Source of the DNA: an uncultured Bdellovibrionales bacterium
GTDB taxonomy: Bacteria > Bdellovibrionota > Bdellovibrionia > Bdellovibrionales > SG-bin7
Direction of reading: 5' to 3'
Length of the DNA stretch: 64,000 bases
NCBI GenBank assembly: GCA_964498095.1
Contig: CAZCFY010000002.1
Location: 74,298-138,297 of the forward strand
Shown: piece by piece, positions 25,078 to 60,194 of the stretch
How the letters are laid out: each line of letters starts with the position of its first letter
How positions within the stretch are numbered: position 1 is the first letter of the stretch
Program-made: the position numbers and the translations under genes
The notes under the pieces: model-generated
What the model saw: only the letters and a program-made list of their open reading frames with translations
Databases searched by the model: none
Told to the model about the DNA's origin: nothing

Positions 25078-25150
25078 TTTTTCCCCCGGTTTATACGTTT
25101 TCTTATCGGCAAAATTTGTCTCCGGATTTAGCTTTCTCAGAGTGAGAATT

Positions 25151-26580: not shown

Positions 26581-26612
26581 AAAAAGCCAAAGACTGTGCT
26601 TTGGCTTTTTGG
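26581..26612 (-). terminator. Rho-independent terminator (usable on both strands)
   Basis: 10-bp stem aaagccaaag / ctttggcttt with a 6-nt loop, followed by a T-run on each strand. Lies 30 nt downstream of the stop of the minus-strand lipoprotein gene. Confidence 0.7.
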
Positions 26613-26640
26613 TTTTAGAACTATGTGAGCGAAGGTAGAA

Positions 26641-27354
26641 TTATTGAAGAAGAGTGATGAGGGCAGCGCCTATCGCCTGATAGTTTCCGGCATTATTATT
26701 TATTGCCTGACCAATTTGAGTACAGACTGCAGAATTTTGATCCGTAATTACCGCACATTGACTCGAATAAAGAGTCGTAGCAGTTGCTCCAATTGCTGTT
26801 TGCTGTTGTGCGGTAGCTCCTCCCGACGCATTGGTAACGGCAGCGTTAATGTCTGCTGGGTCTGGGGTTTGTCCATTGAGAATATCTGCGAGAATATTTC
26901 CTCCTGCGGCACCACCTGCTTCAGCGACAGTTGTTCCGATTCTCGCGGCACTTGCAAAATAAATATAGCCATTGCTACCAGAAGCTACGCAATCGTTATA
27001 GACGGCAGTTGCTACAGTGCCGCTGCTAAATGCTAACATACCCATCAAAGTCATCGCGGGATCATTAGCGCCGTTATTATCCAACATTCTCCCAACAGCA
27101 TTCGAAATCCGCTGGGAGTCGAGGCCGTCGCCGATGAAGCCGGCGGCGCAACGGATAGAGTAGGACTCGGCAGATGAGTAAGATGCGACCATGGCTTTGC
27201 AGGTGGTCGCGGCGGCGGAGCGGGAAGCGACGGTGCCACCGCTAATTCGGTCCAAACATTTTTGGGCTTTGGCAATGGCGTTGGTTTCGGCGTCTTCGCA
27301 GCCGGTTAGAAATAAAGTGGCGACTCCACATACGCTCAAGAATAAATTTTTCAT
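26641..27354 (-). CDS. Ala/Gly-rich lipoprotein L1, paralog of the 28870..29712 product
   Basis: Start at ATG 27354 (MKNLFL, GGAG upstream). Lipobox LTGC. Shares segments with L2 (SYSIRCAAGF vs ASAYAGKCGL; MTLMGMLAFSSG vs LMMVLIAFAKTG). Confidence 0.6.
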   Translation of the reverse strand: MKNLFLSVCGVATLFLTGCEDAETNAIAKAQKCLDRISGGTVASRSAAATTCKAMVASYSSAESYSIRCAAGFIGDGLDSQRISNAVGRMLDNNGANDPAMTLMGMLAFSSGTVATAVYNDCVASGSNGYIYFASAARIGTTVAEAGGAAGGNILADILNGQTPDPADINAAVTNASGGATAQQQTAIGATATTLYSSQCAVITDQNSAVCTQIGQAINNNAGNYQAIGAALITLLQ

Positions 27355-27681
27355 CCGAATCTCCTGTTGCAATTCAAAATTTCAAAATAAATATGAAGTT
27401 CTATATTAGACCGCGACTGCAAAAGTGTAAAGAGCCTTGAAACTGCGTTGCCGCCAAATGGCCGCCGCGACGTATAGCTGTGGCACCGTAGAACACCATC
27501 TCGTCAAATAAAACCACCTCAGCGCGCGCCAACTTAAGAATATAATAACATTTCTCCTCAACGATCGTCCAGGTGGCGGCGGCCACCTCAACCATAGGCG
27601 CGTCGAGGATGGTAAAAAAGAAGTCAAACGTCTCAAAATCGCTACGTATCATTCCGATAATTTGAGTGAGGAGAATTCATC

Positions 27682-28863
27682 ATGAATCGTCTAAGTTTTT
27701 CTAAATTGCAAGCAGCGAAGAGGTATTTTTTTGAGGTCGATTTCGCGAGAACGAAACTAACGAAATTCATTCTTAAAATTCCCCTAATTTTACTTCTCAT
27801 TGGCAACCAAGTTCTGGCCCGGGAACTTTACGAATTTTACAATGGCGTACGGCAAATGGGAATGGGCGGAGCGACGATTGCAGTGGTAAACGACGAGACA
27901 GCGCTCTTTGCTAATCCCGCGGCTCTGGGTAAACTACGCGACAGTTTTACGACAGTTGCCGATCCCGAAGTGGATTATGGCGAAATTAACTCGGAAATTG
28001 CACCGGGCACGGGAATTCTAGATGCTTTCTCCCTGCAAGGAGTTCTTGATAAACTTAATAGCGCGAAAGACAAACACTTTCACTTAAGGGCTCAGGCTTC
28101 GCCATCATTAGTTCTGTCGAACTTTGGAATCGGGATTTATGAAAAGTACTCGGTTGACGGTGAAGTCACGGCTTCGCCAAATGAGTTGCACTTGGATTTT
28201 CGTAACGATTTGGCGTTTGTCATTGGCTACTGTTTTCGTATTTGGGATGGGCGTATTAAATTTGGTTTTAATGCCAAGTACATTAGCCGCTTAGAAATCA
28301 GCGACCCCACGAATACAATTTCTCCAAGTGTTACGGATTTATCGGCCAAAGACTATGCCGTCGAAGGCGCGGGAATTTCCGCAGACGTCGGCTTAATTCT
28401 TTCGGCGCCTTGGGCTTTGCTTCCAACTCTAGCGGTGGTCGCGCACGATGTTGGCGATACGGCATTTAATGCTGGCACGGGTTTTATGTACGGCACATCG
28501 TCAACGCGGCCGCGGAAGGTTCCGCAAACAATAGATGCGGCGATCGCTTTATTTCCAATTTTGGGGCAAAGAACACGCACCACATTTACGGTTGAAGTCC
28601 GCGACGTTACAAATGTCCTCAAGGAGCACGATGGCACGTTGATTACGGACCCTTACAAAAAGTATCACGCGGGAATTGAATTTAACATCCGCGATATGTT
28701 TTTTATTCGTGGAGGAATGAATCAGCATTATTGGACCGCAGGTCTAGAGTTTGCGTATGACCGCTTTCAGTTTCAAATAGGTACGTACGGAGAAGATATA
28801 GGAACGGGAACCGCAAATAGAGAAGACCGTCGCTATTCGGCAAAATTTGCATATAGGTTTTAA
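27682..28863 (+). CDS. FadL/TodX-like outer-membrane beta-barrel, paralog 2 of 3
   Basis: GAGGAG Shine-Dalgarno upstream. N-terminal VRQMGMGGATIAVVNDETALFANPAALGKL. C-terminal NQHYWTAG...EDRRYSAKFAYRF. Confidence 0.6.
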   Translation: MNRLSFSKLQAAKRYFFEVDFARTKLTKFILKIPLILLLIGNQVLARELYEFYNGVRQMGMGGATIAVVNDETALFANPAALGKLRDSFTTVADPEVDYGEINSEIAPGTGILDAFSLQGVLDKLNSAKDKHFHLRAQASPSLVLSNFGIGIYEKYSVDGEVTASPNELHLDFRNDLAFVIGYCFRIWDGRIKFGFNAKYISRLEISDPTNTISPSVTDLSAKDYAVEGAGISADVGLILSAPWALLPTLAVVAHDVGDTAFNAGTGFMYGTSSTRPRKVPQTIDAAIALFPILGQRTRTTFTVEVRDVTNVLKEHDGTLITDPYKKYHAGIEFNIRDMFFIRGGMNQHYWTAGLEFAYDRFQFQIGTYGEDIGTGTANREDRRYSAKFAYRF

Positions 28864-45243: not shown

Positions 45244-46761
45244 TTGCAATTGTTTATAACTCTACTGTTATTTTTAGGTTCTATCGGCGCTAAGGCGGAG
45301 CCCTGGATGTCCAATCGCTACGCGCAGAATTGTTCTTCTTGTCATAGTCCGGGGCGGCTAAATTTGCCAACCAAAGACCGCCGCTGTACTTTGTCTTGCC
45401 AGGCCTGCCACGTAAATCCTAGCGGTGGCGGCATTCGCAATAGTTATGGAGTGTGGAATCAGCAGAGATGGTTACGCTCGTTTAAAACCGAATTTTTGGA
45501 AAGTAAAAATACGCCTGCGCCCTTTCGTTCCCAGGTGTGGGGCAGCAATGTAGGTAAGAATAAGAAATCTGGCGGGAAAGACTCTAAGGAGACGCAAAGA
45601 GATCAGCGCGACAAAAAAGATTTTCCAATTTTATATATTGTCAAAGAAATTGACTACCGCGAAAAAGACTATGACCGTGGAGATAATCAAGAGCTAATTA
45701 CCGCAAAATCCATGAGTGAGTTCTTGGCCCGAGTTCCCGAAGAGGATCCGTATATCCATGAACGCCGCCAATGGGTTTTTGCTGGCGGGAACTTGCGTTT
45801 ACTAAATTTTGATCAGAAGGTGACGGCGCCGTCAGGAACCGTAACTTCCGGCAATTATACTTTGCCCATGTCGTTTGACGTAGGAGTGCGCTTAAAGCCA
45901 TTTGTTAAAAAGAATCTAAATTTGGTTTTTGAGCACCGCTATTATAATTATCCCGGTCAAAACGGCAACGTGCGCACGAGTCCCGATTGGATTACGGCGG
46001 CGGATGGATCAAAATCACGTTCGGCTTATGTGCTCATTGATGATTTACCTTTTGCGAGTTACGTGCAGTATGGTCTTTATCGGCCCCTGATGGGCATGAA
46101 TACTCCAGATCACACTTCGCTAGCGCAAAGCATGATGTACACCTACGATACCTCCGATGGCTTAACGAATATTCCCGCCGACGCGGCATTATACGTGGCA
46201 AAAGCGCTGTCGATAGGGACTTCTCCTAACGTACCATTTGCCAATGTTCACCTCATAAAACCTGTGGATAATCCTTCTTTCCCCAATTTTTCGCAAGACG
46301 ACGGCTTCGCGGTGAACTTGGGAGGGCGCTTCGTGCGTTATGGTTTTTCGGCTATGCTGTCCTACTGGAATACAAAAGCTAAAATCACCGGTTTTGAAGT
46401 GAATAAAAAAATGATTGGCCTAAACTTCGGTGGAACCTGGAACAATTTCATCGCTAACGTGGACCTTACGCAAATCGAAAAAGATTATACCGGTGGAACC
46501 AGCGACAAGGGACATGTCCAAACCCTGGAATTAAAATACCGCATGTGGCGTGAAATCTATGCGCAAGTTAATGTGGCGCGCGCCAATACGACCCGTACTC
46601 TCAAAGACGGTACCGCGAGCGAATTTATGTTTGGGTTAAAGTCTTTCTTAACTCCCGGCGCGGAATTTGAAATTTTAAACGTGGCACGCGAGGATGGCTC
46701 AGCTTCCGGTGGGAAGTATTCGCGCAGTCAGTGGCAAATGATGTTAAATCTCTTTTTCTAA
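45244..46761 (+). CDS. operon gene G: outer-membrane beta-barrel-like protein with two N-terminal CXXCH motifs
   Basis: TTG start with GGGGGAG 6 nt upstream. SPase-I signal GAKA/EP. CSSCH and CQACH within the first about 45 mature residues, then a Lys/Asp-rich linker. The long strand-like remainder ends in an aromatic beta-signal (WQMMLNLFF). Confidence 0.6.
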   Translation: MQLFITLLLFLGSIGAKAEPWMSNRYAQNCSSCHSPGRLNLPTKDRRCTLSCQACHVNPSGGGIRNSYGVWNQQRWLRSFKTEFLESKNTPAPFRSQVWGSNVGKNKKSGGKDSKETQRDQRDKKDFPILYIVKEIDYREKDYDRGDNQELITAKSMSEFLARVPEEDPYIHERRQWVFAGGNLRLLNFDQKVTAPSGTVTSGNYTLPMSFDVGVRLKPFVKKNLNLVFEHRYYNYPGQNGNVRTSPDWITAADGSKSRSAYVLIDDLPFASYVQYGLYRPLMGMNTPDHTSLAQSMMYTYDTSDGLTNIPADAALYVAKALSIGTSPNVPFANVHLIKPVDNPSFPNFSQDDGFAVNLGGRFVRYGFSAMLSYWNTKAKITGFEVNKKMIGLNFGGTWNNFIANVDLTQIEKDYTGGTSDKGHVQTLELKYRMWREIYAQVNVARANTTRTLKDGTASEFMFGLKSFLTPGAEFEILNVAREDGSASGGKYSRSQWQMMLNLFF

Positions 46762-46774
46762 CAGAGTTAATACA

Positions 46775-48097
46775 ATGGAAGAAAAAATTAAGTCTATTCT
46801 TGAATGCCCTGTCTGCCGCAAATCCGAATTAAATTGTGAACATAAGTTTCCACTCATCAATGGAATTCCCTGGGTGTTTAAATCTACGGAGTCTACTCTT
46901 CTCCAGTGGCAGGCGCGGACAACCAAGCTCTTACAAATGTGCCTGGTGCAAATGGCGCAGCTTGATGATGAACTGTTAAAAGTAGATTTGTTACCAGAAA
47001 CCAAAGAGCGCCTCAAAATATTACGCCAAGCGATCGACGAAAATGAAAAGTTTTTGCAGAAGTTTTTGAGCCCCCTATGGCCAAAAAGCCAATCGGAGGT
47101 CGCGCCCAGTTTGGCGCAGGCGTTAGAAGAAAAAGTAGCCTCGCAACAGGCCATAGAAAGTTATTTTAATAATGTTTTCCGTGATTGGGCTTGGCGTACC
47201 GGGGAAAACGAAAAGAGCTTAGAAGCCATTATGGGAGTCCTACCCAAAACATTTAAACCAAAAAAGATGGTTGTTTTAGGTGCCGGAAGTGGCCGTTTGA
47301 CAGTGGATTTGCAGACAGAATTAGGAATTGAAGATGCCTTTGCCGTCGATATTAATCCGTTTCTTCTATTCCTCTTTCGAGACCTGATGGCCGGAAAGTC
47401 TCATGAGCTTTGGGAAATTCCTATTTCGCCCTTGTCACTTGCCAATACGGCGAAAAAGCAAACCTTAAAGACTTCTGGAAAAACAAAAGGCAGTGTACAG
47501 TTCCTATTTGCCGACGCCACAAATTTGCCGTTTAAGAAAAAATCCGTCGATTGCATTTTGACTCCTTGGTTTATCGATATTATCAAACAAGATTTGCGTC
47601 AGTTAATGAGGCGTATTAATAATACGCTTGAACCCGGGGGGCATTGGATTAATTTTGGTCCCTTGGGCTTTAGACACTTTGCCAATGCCGAAAATTATAG
47701 TGTCGAGGAAATCGCCAGCTTACTTGATGAAGAGGGATTTAAACTCATAAAGAAGGATATTACGCCAGTTCCTTACCTCAGCTCGCCACTCAGCGGCCTT
47801 GAGCGCAGCGAAAAGGTTCTAATTTTTTTGGCGGAAAAGAAAAAGGAGTCCAAGTCCGCCGAAAAATACTCACCGTTACCAGAGTGGATTATGGACCCCG
47901 CGAAACCTATAAAACCAAATCGTGATTTAAAATACGAAATTTCGCGCCATCATCTTGGTTTTCAAATTCTGAGTTGCATCGACGGCAAAAACTCAATCCA
48001 CGGTATTGCTGGTATGGTGGCTAAGCACTATGGGGTAAACCCGGCCCAGGCCCAAGAAATCGTGACGGGATTTTTAATTGAGAAGTTTGAGGACTAA
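46775..48097 (+). CDS. operon gene H: cytoplasmic Trm112-like zinc ribbon + class I SAM methyltransferase + PqqD-like C-terminal domain
   Basis: No signal peptide. CPVCRKSEL...CEHKFPLINGIPW (Trm112/UPF0434-like). SAM motif I VVLGAGSGRLTVDL, then FADATNLPF and LEPGGHWINFGP. C-terminal IDGKNSIHGIAGMVAKHYGVNPAQAQEIVTGFLIEKF resembles PqqD/RRE domains. Confidence 0.6.
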   Translation: MEEKIKSILECPVCRKSELNCEHKFPLINGIPWVFKSTESTLLQWQARTTKLLQMCLVQMAQLDDELLKVDLLPETKERLKILRQAIDENEKFLQKFLSPLWPKSQSEVAPSLAQALEEKVASQQAIESYFNNVFRDWAWRTGENEKSLEAIMGVLPKTFKPKKMVVLGAGSGRLTVDLQTELGIEDAFAVDINPFLLFLFRDLMAGKSHELWEIPISPLSLANTAKKQTLKTSGKTKGSVQFLFADATNLPFKKKSVDCILTPWFIDIIKQDLRQLMRRINNTLEPGGHWINFGPLGFRHFANAENYSVEEIASLLDEEGFKLIKKDITPVPYLSSPLSGLERSEKVLIFLAEKKKESKSAEKYSPLPEWIMDPAKPIKPNRDLKYEISRHHLGFQILSCIDGKNSIHGIAGMVAKHYGVNPAQAQEIVTGFLIEKFED

Positions 48098-48114: not shown

Positions 48115-48714
48115 TTACTTTGGAAAACTAACTTCGGCCGCACCCATGGGACCGGCGAGAGTAAATTTAACGGGACCGGACTGTGCCGCCGTTGCTGGCA
48201 AGCGAAATTTAACCAAATAAGGTGTGCTCCAGCGGTTGTGGTAGGGATATAGCTTTACGAGTTCGGGAAACTCATCGGTGTTTTTAATAACTGTGCCTTC
48301 AAAACGACGGCCATTGGCTTCGAGATAAACTTGCCAGATAGAACTTTTCTTTCCCAGGTTATTGTCTTTGGGATAGGGAGTAAAAAAACTTAAGAAAAAA
48401 TAGGTGTCGTAGTTGAGCTCATCGAGAACTTTATTTAACTCCGTCTGAAGCTTTTCTTGCGACCACTGCAAATAGGTGGCTTGATAACGCTTTCCGGCTT
48501 CGCGAACTTCGCTATTTAGATATGTAACGTTAAATTCAAAGGCGTTATAAAAGCCAGAATAAACGACTTTTCGCTCTGACCACTTTTCAACGGTGTCAGC
48601 ATATTTGTCGGGGTCAAACTCGTGGCCGAAGGTATGACTACCTTCTTCCTTTGTATCTTTGCTGGTGCAGCCCCACAGAAATAAAGTGGCAAAAGCTATT
48701 GCAAGAATTCTCAT
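48115..48714 (-). CDS. lipoprotein (hypothetical)
   Basis: Lipobox LWGC. ATGA overlap with the upstream hydrolase gene. No family recognised. Confidence 0.55.
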   Translation of the reverse strand: MRILAIAFATLFLWGCTSKDTKEEGSHTFGHEFDPDKYADTVEKWSERKVVYSGFYNAFEFNVTYLNSEVREAGKRYQATYLQWSQEKLQTELNKVLDELNYDTYFFLSFFTPYPKDNNLGKKSSIWQVYLEANGRRFEGTVIKNTDEFPELVKLYPYHNRWSTPYLVKFRLPATAAQSGPVKFTLAGPMGAAEVSFPK

Positions 48715-49562
48715 GATTTAGTCAAAAATCCCTTTAAGAAATTGTTGAGATCAGTATATACCGTTTCTCGACCTATATCGTTAAAAATTTCGTGATAGTA
48801 ACCCTTATAGACCTTTAAGTCTTTACGTTGGGAACCAAGCCGTTCAAAAAATCTTTCTGCGGCCTTTCGGCTAGTAATTTTATCGTCGCCGGCAAGCTGC
48901 ATAAGAATGGGAAGGCGAATTTTCCCAGCGTTTAGCAGCGCAAAGTTAAACGTATCAATCATCCCCAAGTAGAGCGCCAAGGATATGCGGTCGTGGCGAA
49001 GTGGATCACGGTCATAAGTGCGGTAGACGGACTCGTCGCGGGTGAGATCTTCGTAAATTATTTCGTTGTTCAAAGTGAGAGAGGGAATCCAGGATTTCAA
49101 AAAGCGTGCGGCCATATCTTTTACGGCTGGGACGGGTAGCGCAATTCCCAAAAGTGGGGAACTAAAAGTCGCGGCCGTAAATCCCAAATCACCAAATTTT
49201 ATCAGAGCGTTAATATTTACAAGACCACCCATTGAATGGCCCAGGAGAAAATAAGGTTTGGGCAGATTTATTTTGTTGATCGTTTCGGCCAGAACTTTTA
49301 AATCTTGCGAAAAATCATCAAAAGAGTTCACGGCTCCGCGTTTACCTTCGGACTTTCCATGACCCCGCATGTCCCAACCGCACATTGTCCATCCGTGGGG
49401 TAACATCCCGTCAACTAGTCTTTGGTAGCACTCGGAGTGTTCGGCTAAACCGTGCGTTACGACGATGGTCCCGCAAGAATTTGGAGGTTCCCAGGTTTGA
49501 TAAAATAATTCCGCGCCATCAAAGCCGCGGAAGTGTCCTTCTCGACGCTGCATAGGTTTCAT
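48711..49562 (-). CDS. alpha/beta hydrolase (lysophospholipase / monoacylglycerol-lipase-like)
   Basis: HGLAEH oxyanion region, nucleophile elbow GHSMGG, and a C-terminal His in YYHEIFND. Start is uncertain (49562 or 49553 preferred over the TTG at 49589). Confidence 0.8.
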   Translation of the reverse strand: MKPMQRREGHFRGFDGAELFYQTWEPPNSCGTIVVTHGLAEHSECYQRLVDGMLPHGWTMCGWDMRGHGKSEGKRGAVNSFDDFSQDLKVLAETINKINLPKPYFLLGHSMGGLVNINALIKFGDLGFTAATFSSPLLGIALPVPAVKDMAARFLKSWIPSLTLNNEIIYEDLTRDESVYRTYDRDPLRHDRISLALYLGMIDTFNFALLNAGKIRLPILMQLAGDDKITSRKAAERFFERLGSQRKDLKVYKGYYHEIFNDIGRETVYTDLNNFLKGFLTKS

Positions 49563-49620
49563 TGTCAGATGAATCCACATAACGGTCAAGAATCACAAGA
49601 TAAATTCCGTTATTACTGTC

Positions 49621-50166: not shown

Positions 50167-50174
50167 AATTCTAA

Positions 50175-50939
50175 TCAGATATTTGCTTTAATTCCAGAGT
50201 CCTTATTGGGAACACCATCGCAAGAGAAATTCCAAAATCCGACCTCATGATATGATCCGCCCATTGCGGTGCAGATGCTATGACCATTATTAGCCTCGGC
50301 AGGATTGTCGTCACACCCATAAGAGAAGCCGCATGTCGGCTCCATGGTTAAGCGTCCTTGACAGGTAGATTGGCGAAGGCAATTTATAGATACTTTGCGT
50401 TCAATGTAGACAGTGCCATCACCTTCGGGTGCGGTTGTTGAGCTGGGCGAGCGTCCGCAAGGTTCTGTTGCGGCGATGGCGCCGGGGCCATCTTTTAATC
50501 TTACCGAGCCAATATTTCGCGAGGCTACGATTCCAAATCCGCGCTTTTTGTAAGTAATCGACATGTCGTATGTGGCTGGAGTTTTAGTATTTCTTTTACT
50601 TAGTTCGTAACTCTGGATTTCAATATTGGGTTTACCGTATTTGTCGATTAAATTGCCAAGTGGGCTTGCTTTAATTTTCTCTAAGACGTTGCTCTTGTTT
50701 TCGAGTTGTTGATTGGCTATCTGCAACCCAGCAAATGTTTGATTACAGACATCAACGTCACCAAGAAGTCTTGAAACTTCCACGCCCAAAGAAACGGCGG
50801 TTAGCCCTGACTCCAAATCCTGAATAAATTTTTGCTGGTTTATCATCAGTGTTGTTGTCGCTGTGGCGATTAGTAAACCGACACCTAAAGCAATCACTGT
50901 ACTTATTAATGAAAAACCTGATTGCGATTTAAGGATCAT
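50175..50939 (-). CDS. prepilin-like protein A (type IV pilin/pseudopilin N-terminus lacking Glu+5, Cys-rich C-terminus)
   Basis: AAGGGGG Shine-Dalgarno upstream. Leader MILKSQSG / FSLISTVIALGVGLLIATATT matches the prepilin-peptidase pattern G/F-S-L-I, but position +5 is Ser. There are 9 Cys in the C-terminal about 110 aa. Confidence 0.6.
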   Translation of the reverse strand: MILKSQSGFSLISTVIALGVGLLIATATTTLMINQQKFIQDLESGLTAVSLGVEVSRLLGDVDVCNQTFAGLQIANQQLENKSNVLEKIKASPLGNLIDKYGKPNIEIQSYELSKRNTKTPATYDMSITYKKRGFGIVASRNIGSVRLKDGPGAIAATEPCGRSPSSTTAPEGDGTVYIERKVSINCLRQSTCQGRLTMEPTCGFSYGCDDNPAEANNGHSICTAMGGSYHEVGFWNFSCDGVPNKDSGIKANI

Positions 50940-51275
50940 AGAATGCCCCCTTAATATAATTCTAGAGCCTTTTGCCTATGAGAAATTCTTCATTTTGGCA
51001 AAAAGATGACTCATTTTGAGACGCTGTTTTACTGTTTTATTTGGATTTAGCAGCCGGCTACTGAGATTGCTAATTTGTTAAGTGAGGGACAGATTCGAGG
51101 ATGACCGCATCAAAGATTGAGACATCCTTTCTAAAATATACTCTGGACGCCCGAACTTAACTTGGACCTTCTTCCTTTTTATCTACCATCTCTTCAATTC
51201 CTTCCAAATCATGCTCAAGTTCCAGAGGCTACCACTTCTGAGACTGCGATTTTTCCGCGAAGCTCCGCCCTGCCG

Positions 51276-52532
51276 TTAGGGATCGTTTGGAATTTCATTT
51301 GCGGCTTCAAGCAGTTCTTTGACCCTCTGGTCGAATCCCAAAGTGATTTCCTGTAGCCATATCTCAGGAGTAGAAATTTCGTGGTTTGCTTGAGGCGCCT
51401 CAGCCTTATGGAGATCTACAAAGTCTTCGGCAATTTTTTGAAGCTTTGTAAAATCCTCTTGCGTAAGATTTATTTTTTTATAAATCGCGGAGTTGCCATT
51501 AAATGTGCTTCCCGTTTTAACCGTAGGTAATATCTCATCGCGCGAAATTCTAACTCCTGTCGTTAGACAGATATTCAACATAACGGCTGCCAGCGGGGAA
51601 ACGTAAGGACGGGAATAAAATTCGATGGCACTTAATGACGAATCTTTGGGTTGAGACTTATCTCGAGTTGTCTCTAAGAGAGCCGGTAAGATCGCAGAAA
51701 ATGGAACAAAGTTATTTGCTCCTCTGAGAGCGGCGAAACTTGACGTAAGATTGGCCATGCCGGCGTCATTATCAAACCCTCGGGTCAACAATATCTTTTC
51801 AACCACAAGATCTGTAGCTGAACCCAATTCGGATCTCCGGCTTTTTAAAAATTCGACAAACTCCTTCGTTAGCATATTTATATCATGACCGCGTTTCATA
51901 AACTTGCGAGGGTATAGAATTGCGCCGAGATGAAATGCAATTTCATGTGGGGTCAATTTGGGGTTGTTATCAGCATAAGGAAAATATAAAAGAATATCGC
52001 GTTCGGGATCAGCCTTTACATATAATTCAAAAAACTCTTTGGGAGAAACAAAGCCTGCTTGTTCTGGCATGTAAGATATCGGTTCATATCCCTTACGTTT
52101 CAAAATGATATTCATTTGCCTAATCCACTTTTCGAGCCTTTTTGCGCCCGGCACTAACATATAGATCGTTCCATCTTCTGCTATTTTAATTCGGAAGCCC
52201 ATTTTAAATGCCAACCTCTTGCCAAATAGAAAAATAGGATTACGGGGATCTGATTGTTGTGTGGACGCGCCTAAATGATCATAGGAGGAGTCCCATTCTG
52301 CATTTTTATTCTTTTTTAAAAGTACTCGACCGTCACTTTGTTGAAGTTCGACAAACCTAACGGTAGGATTCGCTTCTCTGACGTTATTGCGCCTAAGGTT
52401 TCTTTGCAGCGATTTAAACTCCGAACGAAATTCTTCAATCGAAAATAGAGCTGAGCATTCGTTAGCGGCTTGGGTTGAAAAGCTAAGAAAAGCAAAACTC
52501 AAAATTACAAATAATAAGGAAATCTTGGTCAT
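51276..52532 (-). CDS. secreted protein of unknown function (about 418 aa)
   Basis: Start placed at the internal ATG (MTKISLLFVILSFAFLSFSTQA/ANE signal peptide). No motif recognised; HEIAFH is HExxxH, not a zincin HExxH. Confidence 0.5.
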   Translation of the reverse strand: MTKISLLFVILSFAFLSFSTQAANECSALFSIEEFRSEFKSLQRNLRRNNVREANPTVRFVELQQSDGRVLLKKNKNAEWDSSYDHLGASTQQSDPRNPIFLFGKRLAFKMGFRIKIAEDGTIYMLVPGAKRLEKWIRQMNIILKRKGYEPISYMPEQAGFVSPKEFFELYVKADPERDILLYFPYADNNPKLTPHEIAFHLGAILYPRKFMKRGHDINMLTKEFVEFLKSRRSELGSATDLVVEKILLTRGFDNDAGMANLTSSFAALRGANNFVPFSAILPALLETTRDKSQPKDSSLSAIEFYSRPYVSPLAAVMLNICLTTGVRISRDEILPTVKTGSTFNGNSAIYKKINLTQEDFTKLQKIAEDFVDLHKAEAPQANHEISTPEIWLQEITLGFDQRVKELLEAANEIPNDP

Positions 52533-52699
52533 TATAAAACTATAAGCAATTAAAATGCCTACCAAAAACAACCTATACCATCTGGGGAGAGTTCTGGCCC
52601 TTGAAATGCCATTTTGCAGTTGCAGCTGTAAAGGGTTTTTACGGCTTGGCTACTGTGGGAGATTCTTATTCTTGCGCTTCAGAAGCCCCCAATCACACT

Positions 52700-52746
52700 C
52701 AATCCTTTGTCAGCCTCCGCCGCGGAGGTGAAGGGTCCTCTTAAAG
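52700..52746. repeat. GC-rich palindromic element, copy 1 (inverted relative to copy 2)
   Basis: Its reverse complement reads CTTTAAG-N10-CACCTCCGCGGCGGAGG-N4-CAAAGG. The 17-nt core is identical to that of copy 2. Confidence 0.8.
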
Positions 52747-52907
52747 CTCCCGCGCCGGAGTTCAAGAAATAGGTACCGTCGGAAGTAGCTCGCGGCAATT
52801 CCAATTGGTTGAGTTTTTCATGTTTTGAAATTTGCCGATGGCTTTATTTTTTCTATCTTAGAAAAACAGAAAGTTTTCGAGTTTAATCCTATTTGTTACG
52901 ATGACGC

Positions 52908-53750
52908 TCATCTGCAAACATAGCCGGTACCAGCTTCCGTCATCCCCCAAACAACACCATCTCCTGAGGAGTCTATGTACTTTGTATAAAGAGGAACTGC
53001 TTGCCAAGTCGTACCCGGAGGACATCCTCCAGACGACGAACTTGGCGGCGCCGAACAAATCGGTGCGCCCGTGGACGAAAGACCGGTAACCACTTGACCG
53101 GTAGGGCATGACCCCCCAGTGGAGCCAGAAACTATACATTGAGGGGTTCCATCCAAATTAATCCCAATCATAGTTTGTCCCGCTGAACATGAACCCAGTG
53201 TACCTCCGCTTGAGATTGCCGCGCATGAGGCTATGACTGGGGGAGCCGTGATTACAAAAAGAATGCGAGGGCCGTCCACGTTAATAAGTCTTCCGGTCAA
53301 ACTTCCTTTTTCTGTAGCTGCTATTTTAAGGTGAAATTCGTAAGGAGACGAATTATTGAGTCCACCAGTGCTTTTATTATAGGGTTTAAAAAGTCTTATT
53401 CCGGATATGCTGATGTAGCGGCTATTTAACGCGTAATTATCCACCAATGATTTCAAAGGTGTGCCGTTAATGGCGTCGGTCAAAATAGTATAAGTTCCAC
53501 TGGCGTCAGAAGCTAAATTTACTGTCTTCCCCGAAAACGTAGCATTGCAATTTACAGCGTTAGCTAGCGTTTGGATCAATTCCTGTTTCATGTTGATTGA
53601 TTCGATCTTTGCTTCCAAGTAACGAATCTGTTGGGAACTTGAAATCAACTGCGAAGCGATAGCTGTCATCAGGATCATTCCAATGCCAGCGGCAACCATA
53701 ACTCCAAGTAAGCTAAATCCTGCCCGACTCTGCAGATTTTCCCTCGACAT
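52908..53750 (-). CDS. prepilin-like protein B (lacks Glu+5; C-terminal Cys-bounded repeats)
   Basis: ATG 53750 with GGGGA upstream. Leader MSRENLQSRAG / FSLLGVMVAAGIGMILMTAIA has Gly at +5. C-terminal repeats GSCSAGQTMIGINLDGTPQC and GSCPTGQVVTGLSSTGAPIC. Confidence 0.6.
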   Translation of the reverse strand: MSRENLQSRAGFSLLGVMVAAGIGMILMTAIASQLISSSQQIRYLEAKIESINMKQELIQTLANAVNCNATFSGKTVNLASDASGTYTILTDAINGTPLKSLVDNYALNSRYISISGIRLFKPYNKSTGGLNNSSPYEFHLKIAATEKGSLTGRLINVDGPRILFVITAPPVIASCAAISSGGTLGSCSAGQTMIGINLDGTPQCIVSGSTGGSCPTGQVVTGLSSTGAPICSAPPSSSSGGCPPGTTWQAVPLYTKYIDSSGDGVVWGMTEAGTGYVCR

Positions 53751-53902
53751 GCCTGTCCCCAATTCCTTTATATTATTTTATAATATCCATTGGCATTTAT
53801 TAAGCAATTTTAAGTGAATTGCCTTAGACTCAGCCAATGCACTTTCTAATCGATGATTTGTATCAGAATGAGATGCCCGGGGGCAGATACATCGCCGGCA
53901 AA

Positions 53903-53954
53903 TTTTAAGTGGAGCGCTATCCACCTCCGCGGCGGAGGTGGAGACTCTCAAAGG
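53903..53954. repeat. GC-rich palindromic element, copy 2
   Basis: TTTTAAG-N13-CACCTCCGCGGCGGAGG-N10-CAAAGG. The core forms a 9-bp stem with a 3-nt loop (ccacctccg cgg cggaggtgg, 53921-53941). Confidence 0.8.
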
Positions 53955-53984
53955 CCACACGTTTCTTTGCCTGTGAGACAAGTG

Positions 53985-54533
53985 TTAAATAGCTTTACCG
54001 GGGGGTTTCCGCTCAGACTGGGGTTTTGGTTGCGGCTTCATTTTTCTCGAGGGTGGTACGTCATACCCGACAGTAACCAGTTCAAACTCTTTAAAGTTTT
54101 TGAGGACGTCTATTCTTAGAGGAAGATCGAACATACGAGAAACATTCGTGCCTTGGGAATTTTCGGCGGCACAAGAAAAGTGGATTGGTGCCTTGGCGCC
54201 CTCCAATACTAAGGTAGTAACTTCGTCGGAACTGTTTCGCTCAACTTCTTTCACTTTCAGTATACGCGGTTCACTTATTTCAAGTTTAGAGACATTTTCC
54301 CCTTTAACTTTGAAGGTGCATACTATCTTACTTTTGAAGAAAGGTGTATTATCCAAAATTTTTTCAAGGGTGGCGCAGGAAGAACTTTCCTCAGCGGGAC
54401 AAGGTTCAAAGGGTAAACTACTTATCTTTTTCGGATCAAATTTAAGCTCAGTCATGGACCCTATGTAAAGTTCTTCGCCCTTTGCAATCAAAGTAAAAAA
54501 TAACGCCATAAAAACGAAGCGACTTAAGGTCAT
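53985..54533 (-). CDS. secreted protein of unknown function with a Pro/Lys-rich C-terminal tail
   Basis: Signal peptide FFTLIAKG/EE. C-terminus PPSRKMKPQPKPQSERKPPGKAI. No family recognised. Confidence 0.45.
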   Translation of the reverse strand: MTLSRFVFMALFFTLIAKGEELYIGSMTELKFDPKKISSLPFEPCPAEESSSCATLEKILDNTPFFKSKIVCTFKVKGENVSKLEISEPRILKVKEVERNSSDEVTTLVLEGAKAPIHFSCAAENSQGTNVSRMFDLPLRIDVLKNFKEFELVTVGYDVPPSRKMKPQPKPQSERKPPGKAI

Positions 54534-54634
54534 GTACCCCCCTTGATCTCATTCACTAGGTTATCAGGAAATGTTAAAGAAACCAGCGGCACCTTCGTCC
54601 AAAAACGCGGCACACCCACTAACCGCCATCCCAG

Positions 54635-55081
54635 TCACCGCAGCGAAGCCACTGCCAATCTAACAAATTTTCCGTGCCCGGCGTTTAGCGAGCCCAGCTT
54701 TTCGTCTGTTACGCGCATCCAGCGAATGGCGGCGGCATCATCACCGGCGGAAAAATTAAGTTCGACATCGGTACCAACGTGTTTGTGAAACACCGTCGTC
54801 TCTACCCATGACTCCTTGGTGTTACGCGGATCTTCGACCAAGCCTTTATAAATTTCCGTGCCTGCCACATGACTCAAATCTACTCCCGCTTCTTCCCGAA
54901 GTTCCCGCGCAGCAGTGGTTTCCGCCGCCTCACCTTTTTCGATAAATCCACCAGGCAGCGCCCAGCGCCCACTGTCTTTACGCTGAATAACCAATACTTC
55001 AAAAATATTATCGCGCGAATTGAAACGCGTGACCACGGTATCAGCGGCAAGGTTGGGTCCTTTGTACCAAAGATCCGGCAA
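54635..55081 (-). CDS. Nudix hydrolase (ADP-ribose pyrophosphatase-like)
   Basis: Nudix box GGFIEKGEAAETTAARELREEAGV. Confidence 0.85.
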   Translation of the reverse strand: MPDLWYKGPNLAADTVVTRFNSRDNIFEVLVIQRKDSGRWALPGGFIEKGEAAETTAARELREEAGVDLSHVAGTEIYKGLVEDPRNTKESWVETTVFHKHVGTDVELNFSAGDDAAAIRWMRVTDEKLGSLNAGHGKFVRLAVASLR

Positions 55082-55088
55082 TGTACAC

Positions 55089-56660
55089 CTACCTAATTAT
55101 GGAATCTTCTAAATTCTTGTTTTTGGTTGGCGGCAGGTCTTCGTTGTAGTGAATGCCAACAGACTCCTTGCGCATCAAAGCACAGCGGACGGAAAGCGTG
55201 GCCATTAAAGCAATGTTACGGCACTCAAGGATGTCCTGATGCAAAGGAAACTTACGATAATATTCCGCGATCTCTTCTTGAATGATCTGCAGGCGTTTTA
55301 GTGCGCGCTGCAAACGGAAAGTCGTGCGCACGATTCCCATATAGTTCCACATCAGTGTGCGAATCTCTTGCCACAAATGCGCGATTACCACCATTTCCGG
55401 ATGAGTAGGGGCGGGTGGGTTCTTCCACGCATCGATTTCTAACGGCGAAATCGGGATAGTGGGAATTTTATCTTTTAAAAATTCGGCGGTATTCTGTGCG
55501 GTCGCCAAGCATTCCAGCAGGGAATTGCTAGCTAAGCGGTTAGCGCCATGGAGTCCATTGCAAGCCGTCTCGCCAATTGCAAACAAGTTCGTAACGTCGG
55601 TTTTGCCAGTAATGTCACTTAATACTCCGCCACAGAGATAATGAGCTGCCGGCACCACGGGGATGGCATTGCGAGTAATATCTATGCCGTAATTCAAACA
55701 TTGTTTATAGATTGTCGGGAAGCGCTCTCTTATTTCTTCGGCTGGTTTATGAGAAATATCGAGATAAACACAAGGATGGCCCGATTTTTTTATTTCGGCA
55801 TCCATCGAGCGCGCCACGATATCGCGGGGAGCGAGCGTTCCCATCTCGTGGTATCTTTGCATAAACTCTTCGCCGCTAGAGTTAATAAGTTTAGCGCCTT
55901 CTCCGCGTAGGGCTTCTGTAAGTAAAAAATTTCGCGCTTCAGGGTGATAAAGGCAGGTGGGATGAAACTGCATAAACTCAAGATTGGCAACTCGCGCGCC
56001 GGCACGATAAGCCATGGCGATGCCATCGCCAGTGGCGCCGGTCCAATTTGAGGTGTAAAGATAAATTCTGCCCGCCCCACCCGTTGCTAAAATCGTAACT
56101 TTGGATTTTATGGCGATGACTTCTTGATTTTTCACATCAAAAACATTGCAGCCGATACATGTGTTGGGATTTAAATCATGCGGATCAAGTCTTTTTGTTG
56201 ATAAAAGGTCGATCGCGAAATGGTCTTCTAAAATTTCTATATTTTTGTGTTCGCGAGCCCGTTTTAGTAAAGTGCTATGAATGATATTTCCGGTATGATC
56301 TTTAACATGCAAAACGCGCGCTTCGCGGTGGCCTCCTTCGCGGTTAAGGCTGCTATCAAACTTTACTCCCCATTGGATGAGGTCATTTATGCGTTCGGGG
56401 CCCTGGCGAATTATATTTTCCACGACCTCGCGGCGGCAGAGGCCCGCACCGGCGTTCAGAGTGTCTTCGATGTGTTTATCAAACGAATCATCTTGGCTGG
56501 ATACCGAGGCTATTCCCCCTTGGGCAAGGTTCGAGCTAGACTCGGTCGCTTTGTATTTGGAAAGGATAGTGATTTTGGTGGTTTCCGCCATCTTCAGAGC
56601 TAGACCAAGGCCTGCCACACCGGAGCCAATAACCAAGATATCTGTCGTCAACGTCTTCAT
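55089..56660 (-). CDS. nadB: L-aspartate oxidase
   Basis: FAD-binding DILVIGSGVAGL, plus NLAQGGIA, RPGHHT-type flavoprotein regions (THCAQGG-like AHYLCGGV) and GLHGANRLASNSLLE. Start is uncertain (ATG 56660 or GTG 56690). Confidence 0.9.
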   Translation of the reverse strand: MKTLTTDILVIGSGVAGLGLALKMAETTKITILSKYKATESSSNLAQGGIASVSSQDDSFDKHIEDTLNAGAGLCRREVVENIIRQGPERINDLIQWGVKFDSSLNREGGHREARVLHVKDHTGNIIHSTLLKRAREHKNIEILEDHFAIDLLSTKRLDPHDLNPNTCIGCNVFDVKNQEVIAIKSKVTILATGGAGRIYLYTSNWTGATGDGIAMAYRAGARVANLEFMQFHPTCLYHPEARNFLLTEALRGEGAKLINSSGEEFMQRYHEMGTLAPRDIVARSMDAEIKKSGHPCVYLDISHKPAEEIRERFPTIYKQCLNYGIDITRNAIPVVPAAHYLCGGVLSDITGKTDVTNLFAIGETACNGLHGANRLASNSLLECLATAQNTAEFLKDKIPTIPISPLEIDAWKNPPAPTHPEMVVIAHLWQEIRTLMWNYMGIVRTTFRLQRALKRLQIIQEEIAEYYRKFPLHQDILECRNIALMATLSVRCALMRKESVGIHYNEDLPPTKNKNLEDSIIR

Positions 56661-56818
56661 AATGGGGAACTTGTAAGAGAGCTTTTCCACTTTGTCATTA
56701 ACTCACGATTAATGCGCCATGTAACACAAGGGGAGTCTTGATTCTGACAGAGAGCCGAAACTAAAATTTATAGCAAGGGTTTGACTCGGATGTTGACCCC
56801 CAAAAAACGAGGGCATGG

Positions 56819-58531
56819 ATGCAAAAAAGATTACAGTCTTTGGTCGTGATCACACTTGCGGTGATCATAGTTTCAGTCGTTGCAATAAGAACAAAATATT
56901 CTTGGTCAAGTTTTGCCCGGCAAAATTTGCGTGAAGTCGTTAGTAGCGAACTTTTAGTACTGAGCCACTTGCTAACGCAAAAAGCGCAAACGCTAGAGGA
57001 CGCTTATGTAAGTGCTCTCAATAAAAAACCAAATCCCAACGTAAAAATCATCTATTCCCGTGTTCTGCAAAAATCAGAAAACGGCCATTGGTCGTTAGTC
57101 GACACGCAAGAGGTCCCGGGATCAGGCGCTTACTTTGCCAAACAAATTCCTGAAAACTTCAAACCCACGGGCAAGCAATGGATGCGTCTTAGTGATTCTA
57201 AGGGAGAGTCTTATGCGGGGCTTTTGTTACCCGTAGCCGCTGGCGAAAATGGTATTTGGCGACCCACGGCCGCGAGTGACGCCAAGACCATCGTATTTGC
57301 CGTTTTCAAAGATCCTTTTGGCGACATTGTAGAAATTTTTAAAGGCGCCGGTGCTAGTTTTATAGTTTTAGATAACCGCAACTTTGTAATGGCGCATTCC
57401 ACGGAGGAATACCAAGGCATGGCCGTGGCTAAAGATATTCAACGGCTCATTGATACTTACCGCTTGGAATCCTTTGTTGAAAGAAAAGCGGGTAAAAAAG
57501 CCGGTGGCTATATCGGAATTCAAAAAGTTCCCGAACTCAACCTTGTTTTAGCTGCCGAATTGCCTGGGAATTTGGTGGGCATGAAATTTTATCGTTGGCT
57601 GTTTGAATTCATCGCTGGCGGAATTCTGTTTACGGCCCTAACACTTTTTGCCCTCGGCCGGCGTCGTCAATTCAGCGCGGAGGTTTCTGAAGAAATTGTG
57701 GCGGTAAGAATTCCTTCGCCGAAGACCGCAACTCCAGCTCCAATCACGGCCGCAATTCCAACTCCGGCTTTACCGCAAAAAGATTTTGTAATTGAAGAGC
57801 CTGAAATTGAAAAGCCCCAAGGCCGCTTGGAAAAACTCATGAATCTGGCTGCCGGCATGAAAAATAAAAAAACAAAACCCACTCCTCCGCCGATTCAAAC
57901 TCAAGTCACCGGCTTTCAAAGCCAGCCGACCATGGTTACCTCGCCCATTTTAACGCTGGAAACTGCTAACTTGCGGCCCCTGTTAATAACTCTCTTGGCG
58001 GAAGCCGCGCACGACATTCGCGTTTATGGCGTTGAGGTTGAAGACAAAATTGACGAAGTGCCAGAAGTTAATGGTTCCGCAAAAGATTTACAGCAGGCTC
58101 TAGCAGGACTTATGAAGCTAACGTTTTATGGCGTCCGCCAAAAAATGGCCAAGAAAGTTAAGATTCGTCTGCAGCGCTTAGGAAAGAGCGTTGAATTAAT
58201 TTTAAGTGACAATGGGTTGCCGCGAAAAACTAATGAAGACGCGCTCCTCACGGATATTATTAATTATCCCGAGCTAGTTACCGCAGTTTCATCGGCGCTG
58301 CAGAATTTACGCCGGCTAAAAGCCGAAATACAAATGCGCTATGACTTTCACAACGGTAATCAAATTATAGTGCGCTTGCCTGTTGGCCAGGAAAAGGCGC
58401 CGCCGCGGATTACTCCAAACCTTGCGGCGCAAAATAGCGAAGAAATAAAAAAGCGCTTTAATCAATTCCAGATTAAAAATATTGCCATAAACGTGCGTAA
58501 ACCCAAAATAAAGGAAATCGAAAATGACTAA
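56819..58531 (+). CDS. membrane sensor-like protein: Cache-like periplasmic domain, Pro-rich linker, degenerate HATPase-like C-terminus without a recognisable H-box
   Basis: Two TM helices (LVVITLAVIIVSVVAI; FIAGGILFTALTLFALG) bracket an about 240-aa extracytoplasmic domain. C-terminal KVKIRLQRLGKSVELILSDNGLP resembles the G1 region of histidine-kinase ATPase domains. I could not find a phospho-acceptor His box. Confidence 0.45.
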   Translation: MQKRLQSLVVITLAVIIVSVVAIRTKYSWSSFARQNLREVVSSELLVLSHLLTQKAQTLEDAYVSALNKKPNPNVKIIYSRVLQKSENGHWSLVDTQEVPGSGAYFAKQIPENFKPTGKQWMRLSDSKGESYAGLLLPVAAGENGIWRPTAASDAKTIVFAVFKDPFGDIVEIFKGAGASFIVLDNRNFVMAHSTEEYQGMAVAKDIQRLIDTYRLESFVERKAGKKAGGYIGIQKVPELNLVLAAELPGNLVGMKFYRWLFEFIAGGILFTALTLFALGRRRQFSAEVSEEIVAVRIPSPKTATPAPITAAIPTPALPQKDFVIEEPEIEKPQGRLEKLMNLAAGMKNKKTKPTPPPIQTQVTGFQSQPTMVTSPILTLETANLRPLLITLLAEAAHDIRVYGVEVEDKIDEVPEVNGSAKDLQQALAGLMKLTFYGVRQKMAKKVKIRLQRLGKSVELILSDNGLPRKTNEDALLTDIINYPELVTAVSSALQNLRRLKAEIQMRYDFHNGNQIIVRLPVGQEKAPPRITPNLAAQNSEEIKKRFNQFQIKNIAINVRKPKIKEIEND

Positions 58532-60194
58532 TGATGTACGCAGTAGTTTTTTGATTTACCTCATCGGTGAAGAGACTCTTGAGCTGGCGGCACTTCGGGT
58601 ATCTTTGACTCAAGCGGGCTTTCATATAATTAATTTTCGAAAAGTAGAAGCGGCGTTTGAAAAAGTGGCAAAAAATCCGCCGCATGTCACAGTTGTCGAT
58701 CTTGAGGGGCAGAACCTCAATGCCGAACAGTACTTGGAAAAATTTGCCAATCTTTCTCCGGAAACACTTCATATCGCGACCATTGGTAAGGGGCGAGATT
58801 TACATGCGCCGATACTTATGGAAATGGGTTTTTACGAAACCATTGAGCGGTCCCAAACCGACGGCCGAGTGTTAATTGGAATTTTGGATAGGGCGATAGA
58901 ACGCATTTATTATCAGTATCAGGCCGAACAGGTTGGTGAGACCAGTGAAAAGAAAATTTCTGAACTAGAGCAGGTTATTAGCGATAAAGACAAAACTATT
59001 GCAGCATTAAACGAAAAACTCACTAGTCAGACAAAACAAGCCGAAGATTTATTTCAAAAGATTAGAAACTTTCAGATCCGCATTAGCCAGCTAGAGTCGG
59101 AGCTCGAAGCCAGTGAAAGCAAAACACAAAGATATATCGCTGATTACGTAAAAATAAAAAACGATAAAGATTCTCTAGAAACTCAAGTTAAACGCTATAA
59201 AGGCGATGCCGGCACTTCGTCACTGGGCTTTACGGGTTTAATGTCGTCTTTAGGAAAATGTCACTCGGTCGAAGATGCCGTTCAGGATTGGCTAAATAAA
59301 ACTCACCGCTTATATCAAGACGTACCGGTCGCTTTTTTCCGTTATATCCCCAATCACAGTCATTTGGTGCTCGCGCAATGTGCGGGTCTTGAAATTCAGA
59401 AAGTGCGTGGAATTGGCATTCCGCTCGCGGGCCTAAGCTTGAAGGAGCAAAAGTACTTTTACTCGCACGTGAGATTCTTGGCGAATCTGCGGGATTTATT
59501 AAAAGGCGCATTTAATGTGTCTGAGTTTGAATTCCGTGAACTTGTTACCGACCGAGGTGTTGTTGGGATATGTGTAATCTTTAGATCGCTAAAAACCGAT
59601 GTTGAGAAGAGATTTTTTAATGATTCCATAGAACTTTTAAACTTAGTGGCTAACCGTAATTCACTCGCCTTTAAAGTTCACGAATATGACTTAAGGGATG
59701 ACCTCACTCAGCTCTATACCCGCCGGTCCTTGGACGAAAGTTTAACCGCCGAGATGTCGCGCGCGGGGCGCACACGCTTACCACTTTCCGCTCTCTATAT
59801 CCGCATCGACGATTTTGCGGAATTGGAAAAGAAGTGGGAATCGGAAACAGAAAAAGTTATCAAAGCTGTCGCCACCATTTTGCGCAAGACAAGCCGTATA
59901 AATGATTTACTTTATCGCATAGAAAAAGATCAATTCGTAGCACTCCTCCCGCACACCGATTGTCAGGGGGCAAAAGTAAAGGCGGAGACTTTACGAAATT
60001 TCATTAAGAAGGCGCAAATCCGTACTACGCAAGGCCAGATCATTCCCAATGTCTCAATTAGCGTTGGGATAAGTGAATATCCAAAGCTTTGCCGTGACTC
60101 CGAAGGATTGTTAATTTCCTCGGATGAAGCACTTTTTGAAGCGGCAAAATCCGGTGATTGCGTCCAACTTGCTACGAGCATCGAAGCGCTGTGA
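58524..60194 (+). CDS. receiver-like domain + coiled coil + GAF-like region + degenerate GGDEF domain with a retained I-site
   Basis: ATG overlaps the upstream stop by 8 nt. The REC-like N-terminus keeps the Asp of VVDLEG but lacks the acidic DD pair. Coiled coil from about residue 140 to 230. GGDEF-domain frame DDLTQLYTRRSL...ALYIRIDDF...SISVGISEYP has the active site replaced by EKDQF and is preceded by RIND (RxxD) 5 residues upstream. Confidence 0.7.
   Translation: MTNDVRSSFLIYLIGEETLELAALRVSLTQAGFHIINFRKVEAAFEKVAKNPPHVTVVDLEGQNLNAEQYLEKFANLSPETLHIATIGKGRDLHAPILMEMGFYETIERSQTDGRVLIGILDRAIERIYYQYQAEQVGETSEKKISELEQVISDKDKTIAALNEKLTSQTKQAEDLFQKIRNFQIRISQLESELEASESKTQRYIADYVKIKNDKDSLETQVKRYKGDAGTSSLGFTGLMSSLGKCHSVEDAVQDWLNKTHRLYQDVPVAFFRYIPNHSHLVLAQCAGLEIQKVRGIGIPLAGLSLKEQKYFYSHVRFLANLRDLLKGAFNVSEFEFRELVTDRGVVGICVIFRSLKTDVEKRFFNDSIELLNLVANRNSLAFKVHEYDLRDDLTQLYTRRSLDESLTAEMSRAGRTRLPLSALYIRIDDFAELEKKWESETEKVIKAVATILRKTSRINDLLYRIEKDQFVALLPHTDCQGAKVKAETLRNFIKKAQIRTTQGQIIPNVSISVGISEYPKLCRDSEGLLISSDEALFEAAKSGDCVQLATSIEAL

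Follow-up and report, generated by a model that had tools for sequence, protein, structure and literature searches.

A lineage-specific insertion beside nadB

Two genes for type IV pilin-like proteins, PIL1 and PIL2, are interleaved with two genes for orphan, putatively secreted proteins, SEC431 and SEC182, at positions 50175-54533 of a 64-kb stretch of DNA (here called the window, meaning the whole stretch) from an uncultured Bdellovibrionales bacterium (contig CAZCFY010000002.1). All four open reading frames (ORFs) that the initial annotation of this DNA had placed on the minus strand are present. PIL1, of 254 amino acids (aa), is encoded at 50175-50939, and PIL2, of 280 aa from its ATG and equal to the 280-aa NCBI product P0001, at 52908-53750. 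SEC431 occupies 51276-52532 and comprises 418 aa from its ATG (the mechanical ORF reaches a TTG at 52571), and SEC182, of 182 aa, occupies 53985-54533. Shine-Dalgarno-like sequences are clear at the PIL1 and PIL2 genes. The long spacers that had been described between these genes are likewise found: 336 nucleotides (nt) on the 5' side of PIL1 (50940-51275), 375 nt between SEC431 and PIL2 (52533-52907; 336 nt if SEC431 starts at TTG) and 234 nt between PIL2 and SEC182 (53751-53984). Coding density is 78% across 50175-54533 vs 91.5% for the whole window. However, such spacing is not peculiar to the region, as had been supposed from a spacing of 0-50 nt elsewhere; the window has six further gaps of 213-647 nt, e.g. 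22426-23072 and 26114-26640.

The region was also thought to be AT-richer than its surroundings, and windowed calculation supports this in direction but not in degree: its G+C content (GC) of 0.431 is the lowest among equal-length sliding windows, but the shift is slight (mean 0.456, standard deviation 0.011). The four genes have z-scores for GC at third codon positions of -1.5 to -2.65, with SEC431 as the window minimum (z = -2.65). PIL2 is of average GC, yet its synonymous-codon choice is the most deviant of the four (z = -3.4).

Comparison with related genomes demonstrates that the region is a true lineage-specific insertion. With NadB (encoded at 55089-56690) as bait, 80 related loci were collected, all from Bdellovibrionales-type genomes. 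In the closest of these (L001, the metagenome-assembled genome SG_bin7), whose NadB is 84% identical, nadB and the homologue of the convergent 49621-50166 gene (81% identical) lie 6 nt apart, and the order continues collinearly with homologues of 48711-49589, 48115-48714, 46775-48097 and 45244-46761. L003 shows the same nadB adjacency without the extra DNA, as do at least six loci of greater distance (L062, L078, L046, L022, L041, L080). Alignment of the junction DNA shows that the extra DNA occupies precisely the stop-to-stop interval 50167-55088, filling the gap exactly between the convergent stops of the 49621-50166 gene and nadB. The presence/absence comparison that had been suggested as a check thus finds the island, 4.9 kb long with a GC of 0.441, missing between the conserved flanking genes of the closest relatives, and tblastn with PIL1, SEC431, PIL2, SEC182 and the adjoining NUDIX protein gave zero matches across the 80 related nadB loci. 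The genes of the originally delimited region are as stated, but the island itself is larger, extending to 55088 and taking in a minus-strand NUDIX hydrolase gene at 54635-55081 (Pfam NUDIX, E 2e-20) that starts 7 nt past the nadB stop.

A mobile-element origin of the island was considered and is unsupported, mobility genes and flanking repeats not having been found: there is no integrase-like ORF in 50167-55088, no flanking direct repeat, and no tRNA in the window. A tblastn search of plasmids with SEC431 and PIL2 gave no matches, and in a PHROGs scan the NUDIX protein alone was matched.

Prepilin-type leaders and cysteine-rich C-termini

PIL1 and PIL2 each begin with a short positively charged leader having Gly at position -1, and the prepilin-type leaders proposed for them are as described (MILKSQSG/FSLIS in PIL1 and MSRENLQSRAG/FSLLG in PIL2, the slash marking the predicted cleavage site). 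Phe at +1 opens a run of about 20 hydrophobic residues in both proteins (FSLISTVIALGVGLLIATATTTLMI and FSLLGVMVAAGIGMILMTAIASQLI). The Glu that is usual at position +5 is absent, as was pointed out, being replaced by Ser in PIL1 and Gly in PIL2, and there are zero acidic residues in the approximately 30 residues that follow the leader in either protein. The N-terminus of PIL2 matches the ComGE and PRK10557 models.

Each protein can be divided into leader, pilin module and Cys-rich tail. In PIL1 these are aa 1-8 (nt 50916-50939), aa 9-161 (nt 50457-50915) and aa 162-254 (nt 50178-50456); in PIL2 they are aa 1-11 (nt 53718-53750), aa 12-176 (nt 53223-53717) and aa 177-280 (nt 52911-53222). The Cys-rich character claimed for the C-terminal domains is borne out by 8 Cys in each protein, 6 of them within the C-terminal ~100 residues, at positions 65, 161, 187, 193, 203, 209, 223 and 240 of PIL1 and 68, 176, 188, 205, 215, 232, 243 and 279 of PIL2.

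No further pilin-like motif was found in any frame of the whole 64-kb window. It had also been remarked that no pilus-assembly genes are adjacent, and the twelve neighbour genes scanned with Pfam, a minority of those in the window, contain no pilus-assembly domain, some of them having no domain at all.

An unnamed family of pilin-like proteins

PIL1 and PIL2 are paralogues, with 26% identity over the first ~145 residues (E 1e-14). They look like orphans because word-indexed searches of 5.8 billion proteins with PIL1, PIL2 and a 24-sequence profile return essentially self-matches only. An exhaustive HMMER scan with a profile of both N-terminal halves against 1.84 billion representatives gave 405 proteins at E <= 1e-3, 18 at E <= 1e-10 and 12 at E < 1e-24, the last spanning the whole 175-residue N-terminal module. 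PIL1 itself matches the family profile with an E of 1e-75, and there are homologues with 47% identity.

The family features were assessed in an alignment of 106 members, 100 of which have an N-terminus and 102 a residue at +5. Gly-1 is found in 98 of the 100 N-termini, and the +1 residue is Phe in 75 members and Met in 10. Position +5 is occupied by Glu in 45 members, Ser in 21, Gln in 18 and Gly in 16, so that 57 of the 102 members with a residue there have something other than Glu; the Glu5-bearing relatives carry a canonical G/FSLIEV. Cys68 (PIL2 numbering) is invariant (106/106) and a second Cys is found at 176 in 98 of the 106. Pfam N_methyl is matched by 57 of the 106 members at E <= 0.01 (best E 1e-8), and no other Pfam family is common to them. 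The NCBIfam matches are all to pilin or pseudopilin N-termini: PRK10557 in 44 members, ComGE in 43, TIGR02532 in 31, GspI in 22, PilV in 6 and GspH in 5. A PDB sequence search with the family profile gave weak pilin N-terminal matches only, and the single pilin-like proteins matched nothing.

The family-wide Gly-1 and Phe+1, the N_methyl and TIGR02532 matches of relatives and a predicted helix-plus-four-strand topology (below) agree with the type IV pilin-like identity that was first proposed, and PIL1 and PIL2 are very probably members of the type IV pilin family. The family to which they belong, unnamed so far, is a new one of a known sort, modular pilin-like proteins without Glu5, rather than a new mechanism.

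Family members elsewhere are likewise found apart from pilus genes, none of which lie beside the homologues at the retrieved contigs, where the family is represented by stand-alone or tandem-pair genes. P0005 has a squalene-hopene cyclase operon on one side and pdxJ on the other, P0006 adjoins a secreted protein and a leucine-rich repeat protein, P0017 adjoins tetratricopeptide repeat and unknown proteins, and P0022 is situated amid housekeeping genes on a 266-kb marine contig. At positions 2801-4517 of one locus (L081) two members, P0146 and P0016, occur in tandem. As annotated, both of these start inside the hydrophobic helix; reading upstream restores the leaders ...NQKG/QSLIS and MKKSFKKKTTSNQG/ISMVS, both Glu5-less, and gene callers thus tend to truncate members of this family. 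Loss of Glu5, orphan location and paralogue pairs are accordingly family traits that are not peculiar to the 64-kb window.

Predicted structure and the variable tail

A single-sequence AlphaFold run gave no usable model, with a predicted local distance difference test score (pLDDT) of 39.5. With the 106-sequence alignment, PIL2 was modelled with a mean pLDDT of 80 and a predicted template modelling score of 0.64, and with pLDDT >90 for residues 11-180 (block means 88-97 over residues 11-70). The model has a continuous helix of 50 residues (14-63) and then four successive strands (113-122, 137-147, 155-168 and 172-179); between helix and sheet there is a loop region with short helices at 65-72 and 98-109 and a short strand at 86-89. 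In this prediction the order of elements is that expected of a type IV pilin. In the model Cys68 comes just past the long helix and Cys176 falls within the final strand, so that a disulfide between them probably staples the N-terminal pilin module.

Conserved Cys176, within the final strand, marks the end of the module, beyond which comes a separately evolving tail, whose predicted fold is of low confidence. Within the close clade pairwise identity is 39% in the N-terminal module vs 21% in the tail after Cys176, which upholds the proposal of divergent Cys-rich C-terminal modules. Median tail length is 89 residues (93-104 aa in PIL1 and PIL2), with about 6 Cys, and the Cys total over whole family members has a median of 8 and is even in 83%. 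Two 18-residue Cys-to-Cys units are found in the tail of PIL2, C188-SAGQTMIGINLDGTPQ-C205 and C215-PTGQVVTGLSSTGAPI-C232, and a CPxGQ...G...C unit like these occurs in several relatives. Of domain models, the tail matches a "CC domain" alone, and this below threshold.

Other components of the island and its surroundings

SEC431 has a Sec-type signal-like N-terminus, MTKISLLFVILSFAFLSFSTQA/A, the signal peptide being judged by eye; it has no Pfam, NCBIfam or PHROGs match and two weak PDB sequence matches (E ~0.02). SEC182 combines a signal-like N-terminus with a Pro/Lys-rich C-terminal tail and 4 Cys, and has no match to a Pfam, NCBIfam or PHROGs family. The description of the two as orphan secreted proteins therefore stands as to their being orphans, neither a family match nor, in the loci collected, a homologue having been found, and as to secretion is based on N-termini that appear signal-like by inspection. 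A link of SEC431 and SEC182 to the pilin-like genes was considered and not adopted: adjacency is what speaks for it, and no homologue of either protein was found beside family members in the retrieved homologue loci.

The spacers contain no Rfam family, pilin remnant or shared repeat (the 336-nt spacer, with GC 0.420, has none of any kind) except for a GC-rich perfect hairpin, CCACCTCCGC-N3-GCGGAGGTGG, which is present in two copies of opposite orientation. One copy, at 53920-53943 in the 234-nt spacer, is ~45 nt past the SEC182 stop, and the other, at 52712-52733 in the 375-nt spacer, is ~175 nt past the PIL2 stop. The two copies are also delimited more narrowly, at 53922-53940 and 52712-52730. 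Two copies in 64 kb compare with 0.02 expected, and both are within the island. The 85-nt stretch 53900-53984 around the first copy has a folding energy of -29.2 kcal/mol (z = -2.8) and is without a U tract. The hairpins may be 3'-end structures or atypical terminators, or alternatively elements of the repetitive extragenic palindromic (REP) kind. A sigma-28-type promoter pattern was not found in the island, and a generic scan for promoters plus terminators gave a count below shuffle expectation. The long spacers would most simply reflect a separate transcription unit for each gene in recently acquired, uncompacted DNA.

Elsewhere in the window, the plus-strand gene 25388-26113 encodes an IS200-like or Y1 transposase (Pfam Y1_Tnp, E 3e-7) that resembles REP-associated tyrosine transposases. 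Its C-terminal end carries a tandem 23-aa repeat (PAGFVERCPGPPAGIVEMGHEPS twice), maybe flanking repeat DNA that is read through, and no copy of the island hairpin lies beside it. A second loosely packed stretch, 21800-27700, has gaps of 647, 310, 527 and 309 nt according to the ORFs called in this analysis, and a GC of up to 0.53. The stretch encodes several signal-peptide-like proteins without family matches, and one of these, the product of 24412-25077, looks by eye like a phage tail collar at its end.

The NUDIX gene has an unusually high GC of 0.523 (z = +2.6), unlike the remaining island; its position behind the NAD-biosynthesis gene nadB hints at a tie to NAD or ADP-ribose metabolism and at a mosaic origin of the island. 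Past nadB lie two plus-strand genes, 56819-58531 for a 570-aa protein without Pfam domains and 58524-60194 for a GGDEF diguanylate cyclase. Their order is kept in the closest relatives but they diverge fast, with 55% and 68% identity in L001 as against 84% for NadB.

Proposed function of PIL1 and PIL2

PIL1 and PIL2 would thus represent paralogues of an unnamed modular pilin-like family that were acquired or expanded in a Bdellovibrio-like lineage by way of the 4.9-kb insertion. The sequence of each opens with the short basic leader that ends in Gly, and then Phe and some 20 hydrophobic residues; family homology suggests that both proteins would be inserted into the inner membrane and have the leader cut off by prepilin peptidase. 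Cleavage by this peptidase requires Gly-1 but not Glu5, and Bdellovibrio-like bacteria possess a prepilin peptidase and type IV filament assembly machines. The predicted helix-plus-sheet module, pinned by the probable Cys68-Cys176 disulfide, would then use its helix to dock into a type IV filament.

In type IV filaments the N-terminal amine of a subunit is paired with Glu5 of the one below it, the subunit that caps a tip complex lacks Glu5, and certain minor pilins are of modular build and carry grafted adhesive domains (PMC10191384). By analogy PIL1 and PIL2, which without Glu5 cannot make this salt bridge with a further subunit on top of them, would fit best in the topmost position, capping a tip complex or the pilus itself. 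More speculatively, the hypervariable C-terminal module, probably with three further disulfides, might be displayed distally as a binding head, and the two paralogues might provide two alternative heads. A precedent is found in predatory Myxococcus, where interchangeable disulfide-rich minor-pilin tips are encoded away from the machine (PMC12075869). On these analogies, that PIL1 and PIL2 are tip-capping adhesin minor pilins of a type IV pilus is given a probability of about 0.5.

A number of observations weigh against this assignment. Known capping subunits sit in operons with three partner minor pilins, and the PIL1 and PIL2 genes are orphans. The initial annotation pointed to the GspK/PilX class of tip subunits, but neither sequence nor predicted domain content nor operon context bears this comparison out. 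GspK and PilX (PilK) cap subunits do have a prepilin leader without Glu+5 and a predicted place at the very top of the filament, but neither T2SSK (PF03934) nor PilX_N (PF14341) is matched by PIL1 or PIL2 at E <= 1 or by the 106 members at E <= 0.01. Beyond the pilin module the PIL2 model consists mostly of beta-strands, without the large alpha-helical insertion of GspK, and PIL1 and PIL2 have no GspH/I/J-like partners, their neighbours being the orphan secreted proteins, the NUDIX gene and nadB. The shared absence of Glu5 is what remains of the likeness. Pfam N_methyl (PF07963) scores PIL1 at 14.8 and PIL2 at 18.6 bits, below the gathering threshold of 21.2, likely because Glu5 is missing. 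Foldseek comparison of the PIL2 model with the PDB gave nothing at E <= 0.001 and no pilin among the 50 matches listed, and the predicted pilin fold is thus based on topology and N-terminal homology rather than on a structural match. Residues 181-280 of the PIL2 model form short strands with a pLDDT of ~47-68, and a folded head is thus putative. Expression, processing and surface display of the two proteins are likewise putative. Finally, with Glu5 gone from over half of its members, the family may just as well have given up filament assembly.

The most probable rival explanation is that PIL1 and PIL2 are pilin-like but do not enter filaments, the leader serving only for export or as an anchor in the membrane that can be cleaved off, in proteins of the periplasm, the inner membrane or a short type II-secretion-like pseudopilus. 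The loss from both proteins and from 57 of 102 members of a Glu5 that is needed for assembly, the lack of assembly genes beside PIL1, PIL2 or their homologues, and the presence of the pseudopilins GspI, GspH and PRK10557 among the NCBIfam N-terminal matches are all consistent with such a role. However, the long helix, sheet module and disulfide are kept under selection across ~400 representatives, hypervariable tails rich in Cys are seen more typically in binding domains exposed at the surface, and genuine minor pilins are also known at orphan locations; a non-filament role is on balance somewhat unlikely.

Nor is it probable that the two proteins are accessory minor pilins lying along the shaft, as are Neisseria PilV, PilX and ComP. 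Minor pilins that are system-specific rather than core are not needed for assembly and occur all along filaments (PMC10191384), and the location of the PIL1 and PIL2 genes outside any core minor-pilin operon would suit such proteins. A shaft subunit nevertheless requires Glu5 to neutralise the N-terminus of its neighbour, and PIL1 and PIL2 are without an acidic residue in the first ~30 mature residues; an extra module of ~100 residues would in addition be hard to fit into shaft packing, and a position in the shaft is therefore quite improbable.

An incidental prepilin resemblance, whether of ordinary proteins that a Sec signal or anchor directs to secretion or to the membrane or of decaying genes in junk DNA, might be read from the sub-threshold Pfam scores, the Foldseek result, the low coding density and deviant codon use of the region and the failure of the word-indexed search to give a close homologue, but is largely refuted and highly improbable in view of the family-wide Gly-1/Phe+1, the canonical GFSLIE in 45 of 106 relatives and N_methyl matches in 57 of 106, the intact frames, ribosome-binding sites, conserved Cys and 47% identical homologues, and the confident AlphaFold model for residues 11-180.

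Comparison with known systems

The tip-capping assignment finds a close parallel in modular minor pilins such as PilB and PilC of Streptococcus sanguinis, in which a pilin module of N-terminal helix and beta-sheet is likewise joined to an extra C-terminal domain (PMC10191384). The Streptococcus sanguinis-type proteins form a tip-located complex with a Glu5-less cap and an adhesive grafted domain (PMC10191384). In contrast, the tail of the PIL proteins matches no known adhesive domain and is modelled at low confidence, and the PIL genes are orphans in a diderm predator-like genome, situated outside a pil operon.

A parallel in lifestyle is offered by the Tips of the Myxococcus xanthus Kil (Tad) system, also from a predator, which are paralogous sets of disulfide-rich pilin-like proteins encoded off the main machinery, and whose distal domains vary and are proposed to serve in the recognition of different prey (PMC12075869). 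The Tips are TadE/F/G-type trimers produced from three-gene clusters, unlike PIL1 and PIL2, which have a leader of the GFxxxE type (type IVa pili and type II secretion) and are specified by single genes interleaved with those of unrelated secreted proteins. A Pfam scan of the 106 members found no TadE signature in the PIL1/PIL2 family.

In the thin pilus of R64, PilV has a constant pilin N-terminal part and alternative C-terminal segments, provided by the shufflon, that set target-cell specificity. The PIL proteins resemble it in having a constant pilin part and variable C-terminal segments. The source of variation differs, however: in R64 it is site-specific DNA inversion inside one gene, whereas in the PIL family it is a matter of distinct paralogues, with neither a recombinase nor an inverted-repeat system found.

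Significance

How Bdellovibrio-like predators recognise and hold their prey is only partly understood, although pili are required for prey entry. Variable tip proteins are a leading idea, from work on the Myxococcus Kil tips (PMC12075869) and on Bdellovibrio Tad (bioRxiv 10.64898/2026.07.08.737194). A broader proposal, that the family as a whole is a toolkit of interchangeable Glu5-less capping adhesins, gained piecemeal as orphan genes and plugged onto an existing type IV pilus, is unlikely. If it were true, the prey or surface gripped by the pilus would depend on the hypervariable disulfide-rich head, and Bdellovibrio-like predators, perhaps with other bacteria, would have in type IVa form what the Tad "adaptable tips" are in Myxococcus. 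If on the other hand the proteins never enter pili, the family would represent a prepilin leader reused for another purpose. The family would warrant a new annotation model, and its ~400 representatives, with Glu5 lost from more than half of the members, a conserved module, hypervariable Cys-rich heads and orphan genes in lineage-specific DNA, are testable candidates for pilus-tip specificity factors.

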